DNA of 64,000 nt from Squalus acanthias (GCA_030390025.1 CM059441.1:67208001-67272000), one strand, 5' to 3'; positions 14,791-23,359 are shown, counted from the first letter of the stretch. The notes: generated from the sequence alone by a model not told the origin. A program made the numbers and translations.

Positions 14791-15118
14791 CAGCGCAGCA
14801 CAGCTTACGGTTTTGCTGCAGGATGGTTAAATTTGCTTGCTGCAAAAATCCGACAGAACCCAGTCCGAAAGACGGTGCTTGTCCAGGTCTGTCAGACAGT
14901 TTGACCGCGATAGTATTGCATCAAGTACAACTCACTTTTTCCTACATTGCAACATCGAGACTGCCCGTCAAAAAGTACTTCGTTGGCTGTAACGCGCTTT
15001 GGGACGTCTGGTGGTCCTGAAAGGTCTTGCAAGTGGCACCAAAGACTGAGTCAGACACTAAGCTGCATTAACTGGCACTACTCTTAATGAACAACAACCA
15101 CACTACAATTTATACCAT

Positions 15119-15639
15119 TGTTGTAGGGGCTAATCGGAGCCTTAAGCGGACCAACCGTGAAGGAGAGTCGACGCGTTACCCGACTTAGCCCGACTGAGCA
15201 ATAAAACTCAAACACCAATTTACACGGTTAGATGCGGGAGTACACTTTATTGCAGAGCGCTCTGGGAGAGAATTGATGCACCCGCGTGCAGTCACCGACC
15301 TCTCAGATAAGTCACTCCGGGGCACAGTATTTTATACATCCATCATTGATCACATCGTGCTCACATGAGCGCGTGATAGTTATTAGAATCCAATCAATTT
15401 TATGTATACAATTGTTAAGCATGGTAAATAAATTCAATTAACGTCAGGGTACAGTTGATGTGATCAGCCTCGTCTATGTGACAGTGTTATCTCGAGCCCT
15501 GTATGTTGTAACGTTGTCTGACAAGGCAGACTGCCAACCCATTGCAGCATGTTAAAGTCCTGTGTCAGCGAATTTAAAGTTCATTAACTGGATGAGTTTT
15601 TCTTCTCCGACATTTCTTTAATAATTTTCTTCTCCAACA
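15119..15639 (-). repeat. 3' LTR
   Basis: Direct repeat of 20769-21289; TATAAAA at 15330-15336 and AATAAA at 15246-15251 on the minus strand. Confidence 0.97.
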
Positions 15640-15648
15640 CTCCCTTCT
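15640..15648 (-). promoter_or_regulatory. Polypurine tract
   Basis: AGAAGGGAG immediately before the TG of the 3' LTR. Confidence 0.8.
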
Positions 15649-15717
15649 GTTGGTCCGGGGGCACGACCTTCTTGCCCCCAGGAAACCACTGCTCCGTGCC
15701 TCTTCACGGGGTCGACG

Positions 15718-17128
15718 CTACAGCCACTGGCTCATCTCTTGAGGGCTGGCTACCCCGGCGACGGTGTCATGCGTTTCCTCCCTGGGCTGGAGATTGGTGT
15801 ATCCTTCCTTTTCTTCGTCTTCGAGCAACGGCTCCTCTTCCCGTACGGCGCTGACTGACATTAGCTGGGTTCTGGCAATCTTACAACATGTCTTTAACAA
15901 GGTTATCAAGCAACATACAGCGACACATATCATCACTATCACAACCATTACGTGCATAATCCAGGGGCCCCATTCTGTTAGCCCCACCCATTCTAGCCAT
16001 GACTGTGTCGGTTCCCGGTGTAATTTCTTAATCTCTTCCTTCATGTGGTTTACCAAGTTGGTGATGTTTTCCGAACTATCAGGGATGTAAGGACAACACT
16101 CTTGCCCGATCACCGCGCAAGTGCCTCCTTCCTTTGCAAGCTGGTAGTCCAGTGCCATCCTGTTTTGCATGGCCACTGTCCTGAGGGCTACCATTTCTGC
16201 GCTTATTTCTGCAAGGGCTTCTGTGGTGTCGTTGGCTACCTTCTCGAGAATTTGGGCATTGTTAATGATTTTCCGTGCTAATTTACCCACCCTCCCAGTG
16301 GGGGAAGGCGACGGCGAAGAATCGCTCAGTCTCCGTAATTCCTCGCCTGGTTCGATAACAATGGTGCTCCGTGAGGGATTTGAGATGGTATACATAAGGC
16401 ATGACGTATCCCAGGTAACATGACCCGGTCCAATCTCTGGGCAGCCATGGGTACGCTTTGTGCCCGCATATAAAATATGTTCCATTGTAGGCCGTCATAT
16501 CCATGTTTGCCCGAAAGATAGTGAAACCCATCTGACTATCTGTGGCCCGTCGGGTCCCATTCCACGGTTGGTTACTCGTTAAGTTTAGCAGACCAGTGGT
16601 ATTAAACCACCAGCTTTCAAATGCCGTGTTCCCCATCTCATATGTCACAAAGGTTTGGGTGCAATTACTATTTCCTGCCTCTAGGTTCACCTTCACCCCT
16701 CTACTTACACTCCTTGTCCAACATATTTCCCCGACGGGTCTTCCGACCCCGGTTGTGTTTGTTAGGGCGAAGAAGGGTGGATCTTTACTAGAGTTGTACT
16801 TGGGTTTGTAACATCCCTTAAATCGTTCCAATGGGTACCCTCCACCTCGGAACTCCTCCCTCGTGACGTCATGATAGCTGTTCTGGTCATTAAGCGCAAA
16901 TTCTGCTAGTTCCGTGAGATTCAGGGGTATGGGCCGCAGTGGTATCCCACCCTTACTATGGATCGGAATATGGCTACACACCCAACAGCTACTTTGCCCT
17001 GTCTCCTTTACATATTCATACGACCTATATACAAAGGTATCCACCTGGAGCTCTCTTCGCTTACGGGAGCCCCTTTCCATTCCCGAAACAATGCATGTTA
17101 ACGCTATTAAACAAAGTGGTATCCCCAT
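15718..17128 (-). pseudogene. env: Gamma-type env with a single +1 frameshift near 16290-16305
   Basis: Signal peptide, CWVC (CXXC), furin site RTRR, ISD MQNRMALDYQLAKEGG, CX6CC (CAVIGQECC), transmembrane helix and cytoplasmic tail; SU and TM are in different frames. Confidence 0.92.
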
Positions 17129-17290
17129 TTTTACTTGGAAGCAGGCACTGTCTATCACTGCGTCGTTGCCGCTTCTGGTAGCACTCTTGTATTAACATAC
17201 AAACATAAAAACACAGTAGTACACCAAATGCAATAAGCCAAAGCACGAATGCAAACAGGTAAGGTAATTGGACATTTACGGGTCGCTTGA

Positions 17291-17330
17291 TCTGTAGGTA
17301 AAAGAAACACAAAGAAGCGCCCATTAGTTC
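17291..17330 (-). promoter_or_regulatory. env splice acceptor
   Basis: CTAAT branch point, polypyrimidine tract TTCTTTGTGTTTCTTTTACCTACAG, AG at 17293-17292. Confidence 0.75.
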
Positions 17331-19093
17331 ATCTTTTCTCCATACATTTTTAATTGTGTCCAATGTTTCCAGACTCCCTTCCCCCTTATGTCCAGACAGG
17401 CACAGGTATCACCACTAATTATAATTTCGTACGGTCCGCTCCATTTTGGGGCGAAGCCTGGCTTGTCAGGCAGGACCTTCAGCATCACTTTGCTGCCCGC
17501 TGACGGCACGGAGGGTGTCATGACCCCCTCCTGTGCCTGATCCTGAAGTTCCTGATTGTCTCGTACGGCTTGGCGCATCCCCTTCAGTTGGGTGCTAAGC
17601 TCTAAGACGTAACGCCGTAGTCTGTCCTTTAAGGGGCCCACATCAGCCCCACCTGTTATGATGCCTTCTGGTAATTGCATTGCCCTTCCTGTCATTAGTT
17701 CATAAGGGGTCAGGCCTGTCGTACGATTCGTGGTGGCTCGTAACTTCATTAGGATAAGGGGTAAAACCTCAACCCATGTTTTCCCAGATTCCTGTATTGC
17801 TTTTGCTAAAGCGTTTTTGAGTGTTTGATTCATTCTTTCAACCATTCCCGAGCTCTGGGGGTGGTAAGGGATATGGAACTTCTGTTTAATCCCCATCAGC
17901 TGACAAATATTCTTTACTACACTCCCTGTAAAGTGCGTTCCTTGGTCAGAGTCGATTTGCAAGGGCACTCCCCACCGCGGGATTACTTCCTCGGCCAGGA
18001 TTCTGGCTACCGTTAAGGCCGTGCAATTCCGCGTTGGGAAAGCTTCTACCCACCTTGTGAACTGGTCAATTATCACAAGGCAGTATATTTTTCCGTGGGA
18101 CTGGGGAAGTGGTCCCGTAAAATCAATTTGTATGTGCTCCCAAGGACCTCGGGGTCTTGGCTGGTGGCCCATTCTAATTTTAATAGGCTGGCCAGGATTA
18201 TGCTGAGCACAAGTGATACATCGCTGACAGTGCCTCGCGATGTCTCTTCCCATCCCCTTCCACCACCAATCCTTACTTATTAAGGAGCTCATTGCCTCTC
18301 TCCCTGTATGTGAAATACCATGATGTATCTCTAGCAGAGTCTGTTGTATACACTCCGGTGCTACTACTTTACCTTCTTTTCGCCAGACTTGATCGGATCC
18401 TACTCCAGCTCCATTTCTTACCCATGTTTCCTTTTCCGTGTCCGATGCTTCGTCTTGGACTTCCCAGATCTTTATTTCGTTCTCCGGGCTGTCTACGCTG
18501 CCCACTGGTACTTCGTTTATCTCCTCCTGTTCTAGAGCTGCCTGTGCTGCCCGATCAGCCGCCTGGTTCCCCTGGTGGCTGTCCCAGTCTGGGCTTGTCT
18601 TGTCTGGTTCTTTCTGATGGGCCTTAATTTTGATAACTGCCACCTGTTTAGGTCTTTTGCTTGCTTCTAGCAAGGCCTCTATTCGTCCCTGATGTTTGAT
18701 GGGGTTACCTCCTGTGGTTATATACCCTCTACGTCCCCATGCTGTCATGTAGTCATGCACTACCCCGAAGGCATACCGGCTATCTGTGTATATATTGACT
18801 ACCTGGTTCTTTGCTTCATTCAATGCTTGAGTCAACGCGACCAACTCTGCTACTTGGGCTGATAAGCTACCGTCTAACCGTCCAGATTTAACTACTTCCA
18901 TCTTACTATTAACTACTGCCCACCCGGTTCGGGGTTGTCCATTAATATATTTACGGGATCCATCTACTTAGAATGCTTCCTCCACTTCCTCTAGAGGGGT
19001 GTCTTTGATAATCTCTTCTCCAATGTCCTCGTCTATTTTTTTTACAACTGTGTGGGGCTCCTGTTCCCAGGATCCCCTCAGCTGGGTTCTCCC
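17324..19093 (-). pseudogene. pol: Short pol, in frame with gag: linker + RNase H + integrase, with one internal TAA at 18968-18970
   Basis: F*VDGS, SAQVAELVAL, IYTDSRY, KAH, GNQAAD (RNase H); HHCC; QIDF, SDQG, GMVERMN (DDE); WSGPYEI. No protease or RT motifs. Confidence 0.92.
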
Positions 19094-20404
19094 CTATGTC
19101 TCCTTTTCTTCGGGGGTCATGGTGACGTGGGTCGTCTCAGGTCTGCCATGTTTACTGAAACAAGTGGCCTCAGTATGGCCCTTCTTATTACAGTAAGTAC
19201 ATGTCTTCTTAGCCTTACAATCTCTAATAAAATGTCCAGGCTTCCCGCAACCATGACATGCCCCCTTGGGTCCCACTGCCTGTTTTACCGCACTTACACT
19301 TTCCTGTTTAACCTTGGCCGTACCTTCCTCTTTGGCTTTTAACCCGTCTACCCCACAAGCCCACTCTACTAGGTCGTCGTAATTCCTGGTTGTTACTACG
19401 CCCATCTTGATGATAGCCTGGTGTGCGGGAGACAAGCCATCTTTAAAGGCCTGAATGAAAGCGGGGTCAGTTCTTGCCAGCCCTGGTTGGCCTGATGACT
19501 CTCCATAAACAATAAACAGCCTTTCTCCATATTCGGAGGCCCCCTCGCCCTTTTGCTGCTTACAGGACGTTATCTTACTCCAATTAGTCGGGGCCTCTCC
19601 TAACACCCGCTGGATTTCTGTTTTAAACAGATTAAAGGGAGCCTGTTGTCGGTCTATTGTATCTGCCAATGGACATTGTTCAGTCCATCGACCGGTCTTA
19701 TAAGCCGTATTGGCCTGATTGGGGGTGGTCTGCATGAGGCGCCATCGGTCGACCGGACATGCTGCCCGGACCAACTGATGAACGTCACGCAGGTGGAGGC
19801 TGTGTCCCAGCCAAACCATATCTAGGTTTGCCCAGAACTTGGTGTTGGCACTTCGTGTTTGTAAGTTCCCCAGGTCTTTCAAAATCTGTTGCCTTTCTCC
19901 CGGGGTAAAAGGCTGAAAATCCGCCCTTGCCCCGGCGGCAGCAGGCTGGCCCCTCATTCTAACGGGGGCCGCAAAATATTCTTCTGTTGTATCTCCGACT
20001 GTTTCTTCAGTTGGGGCTGTTGGTCCGGAAAGTCCGTACGGGGGGAGTGGATCTGTGTTACACCCCGTCCACCTTCCGGGACACATTCTACTTTGTTCTT
20101 GATTTATTCCCTCTAGTATTTCTACCTTCTTTTTTAAATCTGCTATTTCTCTGTATTTGGCCTTATCAGTCTCTCGGACCTTATCTACTTGCTCGATTAG
20201 TCCCGCCAATTGGTGTACCAAAAGAACTCCCGTTTTCTTGGTTTTCTCCCTTTTTTGCTTACGTACCCACTCTCGTTGTGACTCTAATGACTGGCTAACA
20301 TCCCAGCCATCTTTCTGCATTCTGTCTATCAGCGAACGTCTATCTGTCATGTAACTATTAATAAGGGACCCCGGGGGCCCCATCTTAACGTCCTTACCTG
20401 ACAT
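19094..20404 (-). CDS. gag: Retroviral Gag, intact ORF of ~436 aa
   Basis: Late-domain-like LPPY and PTAP; MHR-like CKQQKGEGASEYGERL; two CCHC knuckles CHGCGKPGHFIRDC and CTYCNKKGHTEATC; ends in TAG-G. Confidence 0.92.
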   Translation of the reverse strand: MSGKDVKMGPPGSLINSYMTDRRSLIDRMQKDGWDVSQSLESQREWVRKQKREKTKKTGVLLVHQLAGLIEQVDKVRETDKAKYREIADLKKKVEILEGINQEQSRMCPGRWTGCNTDPLPPYGLSGPTAPTEETVGDTTEEYFAAPVRMRGQPAAAGARADFQPFTPGERQQILKDLGNLQTRSANTKFWANLDMVWLGHSLHLRDVHQLVRAACPVDRWRLMQTTPNQANTAYKTGRWTEQCPLADTIDRQQAPFNLFKTEIQRVLGEAPTNWSKITSCKQQKGEGASEYGERLFIVYGESSGQPGLARTDPAFIQAFKDGLSPAHQAIIKMGVVTTRNYDDLVEWACGVDGLKAKEEGTAKVKQESVSAVKQAVGPKGACHGCGKPGHFIRDCKAKKTCTYCNKKGHTEATCFSKHGRPETTHVTMTPEEKET

Positions 20405-20440
20405 CGCCCGTCCGCTCTCCAATCACACTCTCCAGTAAAC

Positions 20441-20449
20441 ACTCACCGC
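20441..20449 (-). promoter_or_regulatory. Probable major splice donor of the ERV
   Basis: GCG|GTGAGT about 40 nt upstream of the gag ATG; a second strong donor CAG|GTAAGG lies 7 nt into gag. Confidence 0.55.
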
Positions 20450-20748
20450 CTCTCTTCACTCTCCCGTCCTTCTGGACTCGCGAACTCGTTTACCGACGTG
20501 TCTAGTTGCCTGGAGTTCCAGATCTCGCAAGCACCGCCCGCAGACTTTATCACAGGTTTTACTCTGTACCTTTAACCTACGGCCCAAAAATTTGACATAG
20601 TAATGCAGAATACTCACAACGATTCCCCCTCTGCCTTCCGAGAATACCCGGACCAAAAACCCCTATAAAGTGTACTCTCGCAAATCCCCTCAGATTCTTT
20701 CGGTTACTCGAGCCCGTTAACACTTGATCAGGGTGTCGGTACTCAGTA

Positions 20749-20766
20749 ACCCTGCTCGCAGCGCCA
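20749..20766 (-). promoter_or_regulatory. Primer-binding site, tRNA-Ser (UGA/CGA type)
   Basis: TGGCGCTGCGAGCAGGGT, 2 nt from the 5' LTR; closely complementary to vertebrate tRNA-Ser 3' ends as recalled, not aligned. Confidence 0.8.
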
Positions 20767-20768
20767 AT

Positions 20769-21289
20769 TGTTGTAGGGGCTAATCGGAGCCTTAAGCGGA
20801 CCAACCGTGAAGGAGAGTCGACGCGTTACCCGACTTAGCCCGACTGAGCAATAAAACTCAAACACCACTTTACACGGTTAAATGCGGGAGTACACTTTAT
20901 TGCAGAGCGCTCTGGGAGAGAATTGATGCACCCGCGTGCAGTCACCGACCTCTCTGATAAGTCACTCCGGGGCACAGTATTTTATACATCCATCATTGAT
21001 CACATCGTGCTCACATGAGCGCGTGATAGTTATTAGAATCCAATCAATTTTATGTATACAATTGTTAAGCATGGTAAATAAATTCAATTAACGTCAGGGT
21101 ACAGTTGATGTGATCAGCCTCGTCTATGTGACAGTGTTATCTCGAGCCCTGTATGTTGTAACGTTGTCTGACAAGGCAGACTGCCAACCCATTGCAGCAT
21201 GTTAAAGTCCTGTGTCAGCGAATTTAAAGTTCATTAACTGGATGAGTTTTTCTTCTCCGACATTTCTTTAATAATTTTCTTCTCCAACA
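20769..21289 (-). repeat. 5' LTR
   Basis: 518/521 identical to 15119-15639; TATAAAA at 20980-20986 and AATAAA at 20896-20901 on the minus strand. Confidence 0.97.
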
Positions 21290-23359
21290 CCATCATGAAG
21301 TTCAATATAATGATCATGGTAAAAGTAAACTGATAGTTTTACTTGCAAATCAACAAAACCGAAATCAGCAAAAGCACAGCGGTAAACTTAATTGTAAGAA
21401 TCACACTCTCTCAGCCTTTAGTTGGGGTTTGCTTAATTATAATATAACAGTTTCACAAAGTAACATTCAATGTCCAAGATTGCAGTATGGACTTATACTG
21501 GACACTCCTCAGCACAGACCAGAAATTGATCCTGAGACCTGATTAACCATTGGGAAGCTTTAAAATGTTTTTTTTTCACGCCCAAGTTACTTAAAAGATA
21601 AATTATTCAGGTTCAGACAGGATGTTTCTTTAAAACGTTTATTTTAAGGTCAGGTTAGCTCTGACCTGGTTCTTGCTGCTATTTCCAATGTTTCACAGAA
21701 TCATAGAATGGTTACAGCACAGAAGAAGGCCATTCGGCCCGTCGAGCCCGTTTCCTTCCTTGATATTTCTAATTAATATTAGACATTCAGAATATTTTTC
21801 TTATTGTGATGGTATTTCCTTCCTCCCCTTTTTTTTTTACCTGGTCTTCCCAGGCCTTGCAACGACCACCCGGAGGAGTGGGTAAGCAGCTCCCAGAGCT
21901 TGACATGTCTCACCCTGAGCTGGCTGCAATGGAGAAGCCGTAGAGTGACGGCCGCCACAACTTTCCATCTCCTCTGTGGAGAAGTAAACTGGGGCTGTCC
22001 TCAATGCCTCCCACAGAAATGCAACTGAAATTGGCGACTCAATCGTGTAGGCAGTGACGGGTGTGATGTGTTGGTGCTCCATTGCACTTCCGCATTGTGC
22101 TGCCCACAAAAGCTGCATTTCAACTCATAGATTGGCATGTGAGAAATATGAACAGAGCGCACAATATAATATTGGTCAAAGCAATACTTTCAAGCAAGGA
22201 AAGACTTCGGATTTGGGGCAGAAGGAGATAAGTTTTACAATTCCTAATAAAATACCATTTTGTTTTATAATTGTCCTTGTCCAATTTTCTTCTTCTAAAG
22301 GCACTGATTCTTGTTTTGGGGTACAGTTCCATGGGTTGCATAGATCATTGGCCACTCATTGTGCCTTTCCTAAGTGGCCATTCTTCATGCGTGAGCCCAA
22401 ACAATATTGGCAGCCTACTTGCCATGGGCAGCATCAAAGTCAAGCAAAAATGGTTTTTGTTTTATGTGGAGTTAACTTTGAGATTTATTATTTTAAATCT
22501 AAAAAGTTGTGTGGTATTGTTTAAGGTTATTTGTACTGTAAACATTATTGATTATTTGTAAAATTAATCATTGCATTTATATTAACTATAAGGCTGTTTT
22601 TAAGGCTTTATTTTTTACTGTGATGGATGAATGTAATGGATTTACTATGCAATGGATTTACTATGTAATTGATGAGTTGTATAAGTATTATTGTATTTGA
22701 AGAAAAAGATTTCAAAGTCAAGCAAGATTTCCTACATTACAACAGTGACTACACTTCAAAAAGTACTTTATTGGCTGTAAAGCGCTTTGGGACGTCCGGT
22801 GGTCGTGAAAAGCACGATATAAATTTAAGTCTTTCTTTCAGGTCCTATGCTCCCCAACATCCACACATATACTTTCCAGTAGTGAAGCTTAGCTGTGTTT
22901 TGCTCGCTCCCGAACCCAGGTCATTGCAACTCTACTACTGGCTGAGGTCAGCTCATACAGCAATGTACAGACATCAGACAGGAAACCTTCTGATCTGTAT
23001 GACTCAGGGACCAGTGCAAGTACTCATTGAGCCATAATAAAAGTTCCAAGTAATGCCAAAGATCACTAGTTTCCTGTGGACGTTCTCACAAAGGCCAGAA
23101 AAAACGTATTTCTTCAAGTGCAGGAAGATATCTCAAAGCAATTTATAGTCCAGAGACAAAACAGTGGCAGAGGGAAAACAGAGCGGATTAGGGTGGGGTG
23201 AGTCAAAGGCATGGTTAAAGAAAAGGGGTTTGAGTAAACCGAATCCGGGGCCACACAGGGTGGGAGCACAGCAAAGTCGCCAGGACAGAAAATGTAGCTT
23301 GCGCAGCGTAGCGAGGCGAAACTTTTGGTTATTTTGATGCAAACTGAATCTGCAAAAAG

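Follow-up and report, generated by a model that had tools for sequence, protein, structure and literature searches.

The stretch analysed here, referred to as the window, comprises 64,000 nucleotides (nt) of Squalus acanthias DNA (GCA_030390025.1 CM059441.1:67208001-67272000). It contains, at 15119-21289 on the minus strand, a provirus that has gag, RNase H, integrase (IN) and env sequences and lacks protease (PR) and reverse transcriptase (RT). A preliminary description made from the sequence of the window had suggested that this loss was a stable design, the element being either a satellite that supplies Gag, RNase H-IN and Env and borrows PR and RT, or one half of a two-component retrovirus. 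We found that the window copy is a decayed member of D1, a non-autonomous subfamily of a young class I endogenous retrovirus (ERV) in which many separate insertions carry the same in-frame deletion and whose undeleted relatives retain the missing enzymes.

The cis-acting signals reported in that description were recovered, the splice sites as motif matches. The 5′ long terminal repeat (LTR; 20769-21289) and the 3′ LTR (15119-15639) are each 521 nt long and identical at 518/521 positions (3 mismatches), and the provirus is bounded by identical 4-bp target-site duplications (TSDs; upstream copy 21290-21293, downstream copy 15115-15118). Motif location places a TATA-like element at 20977-20987 and AATAAA at about 20895-20901 in the 5′ LTR. 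The primer-binding site (PBS; 20749-20766) is complementary to tRNA-Ser(TGA) with one mismatch, and the polypurine tract (PPT) lies at 15640-15651. Gag (19094-20404) encodes 436 aa with two CCHC knuckles, its native last codons and native stop being gone in the window copy. The RNase H domain (18530-18967) is of gammaretrovirus type and has its catalytic residues (Pfam RNase_H, 1.8e-21); its best PDB matches are the RNases H of XMRV and Moloney murine leukaemia virus (MoMLV), at 4e-24. Of the MoMLV residues R585, F588 and A589, the first two have equivalents in the window copy and the third is replaced by Gly. Integrase (17324-18499, N-terminal boundary approximate) carries HHCC, D-D-E and GPY without a lesion (Integrase_H2C2, 2.8e-13; rve, 4.8e-20). 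Env (15718-17128) was also correctly recognized, with a TLV_coat match (4.3e-11) and CX6CC in a gamma-type, TLV_coat-type transmembrane subunit (TM), but it is frameshifted near 16290 and falls into two stop-free pieces. Protease, LPQG and YxDD motifs were absent from all three element-strand frames of the window copy, as had been claimed. Outside the provirus, window positions 1-64000 contain no stop-free frame of at least 200 codons and no second piece of the same ERV family.

The joint between gag and RNase H (19092-19111) is compound, combining the family-wide 1,758-nt deletion of PR, RT and tether with a second deletion of 55 nt found only in the window copy and one other insertion (L051). 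The second deletion took the native gag stop. The TAG at 19096-19094 that closes the window gag frame, previously read as the gag stop, is thus not the stop of the family. It is followed by 41 codons (18971-19093) that include a slippage-prone A-run (19031-19048) and lead into the RNase H-IN frame; the first 17 of them come from the tether end, read in a shifted frame, and the remainder is the RNase H leader. The VDGS motif of RNase H is likewise real, but the stop directly before it (18968-18970), once taken as part of the motif, is in no other copy. Because this private stop precedes VDGS, the RNase H-IN frame of the window copy, stop-free for 547 codons (18967-17324), is cut off from gag.

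In the family as a whole, the D1 deletion removes 1,758 nt, or 586 codons, in frame between two copies of a 6-7-nt word (microhomology). It starts 8 codons past the gag TGA and ends at the tether end, leaving gag, the gag stop, 8 codons and then RNase H-IN in frame. The junction was found at 45 exact places, which gave 43 independent copies after removal of 2 duplicated pairs and, with one later find, 44 insertions. Copies were compared by pairwise alignment to one real copy. PR, RT and tether were absent from all 43 aligned copies, and the exact breakpoint was kept in 41/43, the window copy and L051 being the ones that extend it. Flanks differed between copies, TSDs of 4-6 bp surrounded 26 of the 30 copies having both LTRs, and the two LTRs were identical in 7/30; D1 was therefore inserted recently and by the retroviral route. 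LTR divergence did not clearly separate D1 from full-length copies (0.46% versus 0.30%, p = 0.096), nor did the share of 5-6-bp TSDs (12/26 versus 7/25). TSD lengths of 4, 5 and once 6 bp occur within one family that has one integrase. The 1,758-nt joint was also present in contigs of 2/4 public runs, from two studies, and is consequently not an assembly collapse, although its presence in these contigs is no sign of expression; for organisms B and C, whose runs did not show the joint, this does not count as evidence of absence. The near-private 55-nt deletion (2 copies) and the private stop before RNase H might suggest a one-off event or an assembly collapse at the window locus, yet this is hardly credible for a main breakpoint common to 44 insertions and seen in two public runs. 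The PR-RT loss of the window element is real and not a one-off. The doubt raised at the outset, that a single copy could reflect a chance in-frame deletion or a junction unique to this locus, is thereby removed, and the view that the loss is not random decay stands.

The junction allele, which the window copy shares, was found in 43/43 D1 copies and in 5/38 full-length copies. Because it is fixed in D1 and rare among the undeleted elements, the sequences point to a single origin of the deletion, on an older haplotype of the helper. That the deletion arose repeatedly at a hotspot was considered and is unlikely, since all 43 copies carry an allele found in so few full-length elements. The search pattern itself included this allele, so deletions on another background would escape it; no D1-type deletion on another background was seen among 18 extra loci obtained with a PPT-based pattern (below). 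D1 did not form one clade on any of the three gene trees (gag, RNase H-IN and env). Its copies are mosaics, with haplotype blocks that also occur in full-length elements, older as well as younger ones. In terms of retroviral biology, such mosaicism would be the mark of co-packaging and template switching. D1 RNA would thus be packaged together with helper RNA and copied by helper protease and RT, with integrase and Env as needed, a step that we consider very probable, and template switching between the two RNAs would produce the mosaics.

The relatives that could provide these functions are undeleted proviruses of about 8.0 kb, with the order gag-PR-RT-tether-RNase H-IN-env and the same LTR, PBS and PPT as D1. 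Their tether-RNase H junction occurred at 45 exact places, or 42 insertions once duplicates of host DNA were removed, mostly with the full set of genes, and over shared columns they are 98.3-98.9% identical to the window copy. Pol was open in 21/38 full-length copies. Their PR-RT stretch matched XMRV/MoMLV RT best (2e-80), ahead of foamy virus (3e-56) and HIV (about 1e-19), which places the family among class I (gamma- or epsilon-like) ERVs. Class I features were found throughout: RT and RNase H are nearest to gammaretroviral enzymes, pol with YVDD lies in the gag frame behind an in-frame candidate read-through stop, and env is of gamma type. The proposal that D1 is non-autonomous and must borrow PR and RT is supported.

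The two-component alternative would have a partner genome contribute PR-RT, and D1 the rest, namely Gag, RNase H-IN and Env. Only the architecture of the single window copy speaks for this arrangement. The exact RT motif was found at 47 places, 37 in the undeleted set and 10 elsewhere; of these 10, 3 belong to full-length copies, and in the other 7 RT is truncated soon after YVDD. None of the 47 places, and hence none of the 10 further loci, belonged to a PR-RT-only genome devoid of RNase H, IN and env, and the relatives that bear PR-RT also carry the other genes. Together with the dead env and the absence of significant constraint on IN and RNase H described below, this makes a two-component virus very improbable. 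Because those 47 places carry its RT motif, the family would also not have gone unseen in surveys using RT as bait, contrary to an earlier expectation.

Several further features of the family were observed in these sets. LTR length steps by 60 nt (510, 570, 630) with a tandem unit in U3 (e.g. L031-L070), and the number of units is sometimes unequal between the two LTRs of one provirus. In 2 of 20 full-length copies (L032, L041) the PBS matches tRNA-Ser(TGA) exactly, while the family otherwise has one mismatch; the complement of this variant lies in a genomic tRNA-Ser(tga) gene, and an exact PBS is what copying of the primer tRNA in reverse transcription would give. Copies with the same flanks or lesions (L067/L069, L084/L085, L113/L115/L116/L117) were duplicated with host DNA and are not new insertions.

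We then compared what D1 and full-length copies retain, omitting from each lesion count the copies with an incomplete span of the gene concerned. Gag was free of lesions in 26/41 D1 copies versus 22/39 full-length copies, and IN in 24/41 versus 30/41. Env was intact in only 5/38 D1 copies versus 22/39 full-length copies (broken in 33/38 and 17/39; p = 1e-4). One inherited frameshift, that near 16290 in the window copy, is common to 28/38 D1 copies. Env therefore died while the D1 lineage was replicating, presumably as a gene that is not needed in cis, and the idea that D1 supplies Env has to be abandoned.

Other amplified deletions were found in the same family. D2 comprises 7 insertions (L121, L123, L124, L126/L127, L129, L131, L137) with deletions of about 1,300 and 1,059 nt, which leave a single frame of about 850 codons running through the first ~95 codons of gag, a piece of RT, the RNase H tail and IN. 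The breakpoints were net in frame in 5/7 insertions, and most copies have a common env frameshift that differs from that of D1. L126/L127 are tandem D2 proviruses with one LTR in common. D3 comprises 4 insertions (L134, L135, L136, L145) in which 960 and 1,491 nt are missing, each length being divisible by three; these four double-deleted copies are known from 2.5-3.1 kb each. Both classes have lost the gag stop, fuse the gag start to IN in one frame and keep IN. The 1,059-nt deletion alone occurred once (L122), as did the 1,491-nt deletion alone (L130). L132 and L133, 99.4% alike, have an out-of-frame 2,021-nt deletion and, both, a stretch of ~310 nt unmatched to the family; they were counted as two copies, possibly of a single insertion. 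The PPT-LTR junction was present at 108 exact places, and 18 of the 100 listed were not in the earlier sets. Classified from 3-kb pieces, these 18 loci included 4 D3, 1 D2, 1 D1, 2 sharing the 2,021-nt deletion and 3 with single deletions; of the rest, 2 were undeleted in the part seen, 1 was uninformative and in 4 the piece contained nothing of the family.

In all amplified deletions that were classified, the endpoint lies upstream of IN, and the IN-region deletions seen in full-length copies are all single. The RNase H tail and IN region may then be kept for an RNA element that acts in cis to control packaging, export or splicing, and not for any frame. We regard this as unlikely: it leaves the frame bias described below unexplained, and 4 of the 18 extra loci, as well as 8 PPT-LTR matches outside the 100 listed, could be without IN.

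Gag-pol deletions of at least 500 nt present in at least 4 copies were in frame in 5/5 cases (1758, 1059, 1299-1302, 1491 and 960 nt), compared with 6/15 single-copy deletions of at least 50 nt. Under a microhomology null, direct repeats able to seed such deletions are in frame in 0.38-0.58 of cases, which gives p = 0.013-0.04 for the amplified set. The two most widespread small indels in pol are also in frame (+3 in 21 copies, +6 in 14), versus 5/27 single small indels in D1 gag-pol, while the three shared env indel lesions are all frameshifts. The amplified-deletion count is suggestive of selection on frame, not proof of it.

Several observations weigh against such selection. No more than 30/43 D1 copies have a junction that is net in frame; the length of the A-run behind the junction accounts for most of the out-of-frame cases. 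The frame behind the gag stop stays open through IN in only 11/43 D1 copies versus 21/38 full-length copies over twice the length (p = 0.012). IN frameshifts are common to 4 and to 3 separate insertions, and a gag frameshift to 2; since these lesions were inherited across insertions, an open frame is not obligatory. The copy-number threshold of the frame statistic was set post hoc, after the data had been seen. Adding the 2-copy out-of-frame deletions (2021 and 49 nt) reduces the contrast to 5/7 versus 6/15 (p = 0.36), at least 5/6 in frame at a null of 0.42 gives p = 0.05, and the double deletions are nested, so that the five events represent three lineages. As to the A-run itself (window 19031-19048), it measures 7 nt in most full-length copies and 6-11 nt in D1, with a mode of 10.

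These points bear on the possibility that D1 is a pure cis parasite, for which nothing beyond LTR, PBS, PPT and packaging signal counts. It would then be in frame by chance and by a codon-phase bias of the microhomologies, an effect amplified through few founders. The null share of in-frame deletions is already sizeable, 13/43 D1 junctions lie out of frame, frameshifts in IN and gag have been inherited, one 2-copy deletion class is out of frame, and omega (the ratio of nonsynonymous to synonymous rates) is not significantly below 1 in IN or RNase H. Against it stand the 5/5 highly amplified deletions in frame, the in-frame state of the two most widespread small pol indels as opposed to the single ones, and the exclusive occurrence of frameshifts among shared env indels. 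Overall, pure cis parasitism is possible but seems to us the less probable account. The view that the frame is retained because defective RNAs replicate better when translation still reaches the pol stop is slightly favoured.

Selection on the proteins themselves was harder to detect. For gag, RNase H and IN taken together, variants shared only among D1 copies had a nonsynonymous/synonymous ratio of 28/17 versus 234/67 for singletons (p = 0.039), that is, synonymous changes were enriched, with no single gene significant; env showed no shift (15/7 versus 80/37). This excess speaks less clearly for constraint than it might, as it may come from unsampled helpers via recombination, and the omega of IN on deletion-only shared variants, D2 and D3 added, was 0.75 and not significant. 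Neither IN nor RNase H had an omega significantly below 1 among the RT-less copies, and few D1 copies stay open from the gag stop through IN; the stable RNase H-IN protein design proposed at first is therefore not supported. The 7 HHCC/DDE positions of IN were unchanged in 43/43 D1 copies and in 7/8 D2/D3 copies.

The gag stop itself was kept in 41/43 D1 copies, with the context TGA-CAG-TCA intact in 41/41. By sequence match this context fits the CARYYA read-through motif, which is described as able to act on UGA (PMC3542737). Read-through shields RNA from nonsense-mediated decay (NMD); a long downstream frame weakens this protection (PMC5360307), and stronger read-through is then needed (PMC5360307, PMC10141005). 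In D1 the frame downstream of the gag stop is halved, and RNase H lies 54 codons past the stop versus 640 in undeleted copies. A study of MoMLV reports that its RNase H binds eRF1 through R585, F588 and A589 and that, placed right behind the read-through signal, it doubled read-through in cis and stabilized the RNA (PMC4917968). The equivalents of R585 and F588 are kept in 41/43 and 43/43 D1 copies, and the A589 position is Gly; conservation of the R/F motif is, in any case, general among gamma-type RNases H. Folding of the RNA downstream of the gag stop yielded z-scores of -0.8 to -4.0, varying with the folded length, and was not used as evidence.

A protein acting in cis also has to be weighed, as reported for the mouse IAP 1-delta-1 elements: Gag-RNase H-IN in D1, or the Gag-IN fusion in D2 and D3, would help its own RNA, and in D1 nascent RNase H could also bind eRF1 and boost read-through. 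Beyond that precedent (PMC6466679, PMC7411935) and the read-through effect of MoMLV RNase H, this idea draws on the whole integrase kept in all three amplified classes with HHCC/DDE nearly unchanged, and on the R585 and F588 equivalents. It is also favoured by the derivatives of the 1,059-nt and 1,491-nt deletions: each alone, with the gag stop kept and RNase H cut, was found once, and the stop-less double deletions 7 and 4 times. Residue conservation is, however, expected without selection at about 1-2% divergence, the omega of IN is not significant, IN frameshifts are inherited, A589 is replaced by Gly, and RNase H, truncated in D2 and D3, is not what all amplified classes have in common. 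We therefore consider help from the protein in cis doubtful.

An RNA-level cause of frame retention would be likeliest, and a need for the integrase protein itself less likely, because the signal in the frame is stronger than that in the protein and because lesions in env, a region that is not translated from the genomic RNA, spread freely. A single 1,758-nt deletion at the 6-7-nt microhomology created the D1 genome, which then gave rise to at least 44 separate insertions. Read-through at the retained TGA-CAG-TCA, with elongation along the shortened pol, would protect the unspliced RNA from NMD. D2 and D3 would reach a translatable state by another route, through loss of the gag stop, which puts the gag start and IN in one frame. 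Taken as a whole, a helper-mobilised D1 under weak cis selection for continued translation is the best explanation, and we hold it to be probable. By analogy with MoMLV, D1 might in addition be a contributing satellite whose nascent RNase H binds eRF1, raises read-through, shields its own RNA from NMD and delivers RNase H-IN to helper-matured particles, but we think this improbable.

Comparison with known systems places D1 among non-autonomous deleted ERVs: its enzymes are missing, the deletion is present in many independent insertions, and a coding-competent relative has the same cis signals. The closest parallel is mouse IAP 1-delta-1, a non-autonomous element with a 1.9-kb gag-pol deletion whose fusion frame is reported to be helpful in cis (PMC6466679, PMC7411935). 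In both cases a deleted subtype that keeps its frame rivals its full-length relatives in new insertions and is mobilised by them, very probably so for D1, and D2 and D3, as single stop-less gag-to-IN frames, follow the same logic. The suggestion is that the best-spreading deletions of the family keep the reading frame open, as in 1-delta-1. The systems differ in that IAP is class II and mostly env-less, whereas the present family belongs to class I and its helper has env. D1 is also not a stop-less gag-pol fusion: it keeps whole gag, the stop, the candidate read-through context, and whole RNase H and IN. The cis effect rests on experiment in IAP, and for D1 it is a putative one drawn from frame counts.

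ETn/MusD and VL30/MLV offer a second likeness, in which a defective LTR element is amplified by the proteins of a coding-competent relative in the same genome (PMC6466679). ETn, however, has no coding capacity, and D1 keeps long frames that are 98-99% identical to the helper outside the deletion. MoMLV and XMRV resemble the family in RT and RNase H best matches, YVDD, the in-frame gag-pol stop, the TLV_coat-type TM with CX6CC and the GPY integrase. They differ in the stop, TGA in a CARYYA context here versus UAG-G with a pseudoknot or UAG-R with a stem-loop (PMC3542737), and in that the family has two CCHC knuckles and a tRNA-Ser primer. Relative to the MoMLV RNase H-eRF1 interaction, the equivalent Arg and Phe lie on the helix after the YTDS motif and the D1 domain stands close behind the stop, as in the reporters described in PMC4917968, but the third determinant is Gly and not Ala, and 2 of the 3 amplified classes cut RNase H. 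No report of an RT-less ERV retaining RNase H-IN, or of a shark example, was found in titles and abstract openings, with most subscription journals outside the coverage; the part of PMC5512871 available only mentions complementation in trans.

D1 is very probably mobilised as a helper-dependent lineage, as the mosaic haplotypes indicate, and, with no PR-RT-only partner found, is not half of a two-part virus; the finding does not show a new kind of virus. Helper-dependent deleted ERVs were already known, mainly from mouse, and for the claim that a retained frame helps them in cis, one IAP subtype is the main basis. Here, the genome of a non-mammalian vertebrate, a cartilaginous fish, contains a single very young family that comprises a helper and three amplified classes, which keep gag to integrase in frame and have dropped env. 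If the reading of D1 as a contributing satellite were true, the family would be a three-times-repeated natural demonstration of translation surveillance deciding the germ-line spread of defective retroviral genomes, with the sister classes D2 and D3 escaping the same constraint by losing the stop. Because the copies supply natural in-frame and out-of-frame versions of one RNA, sequencing alone could separate RNA stability from a protein acting in cis.

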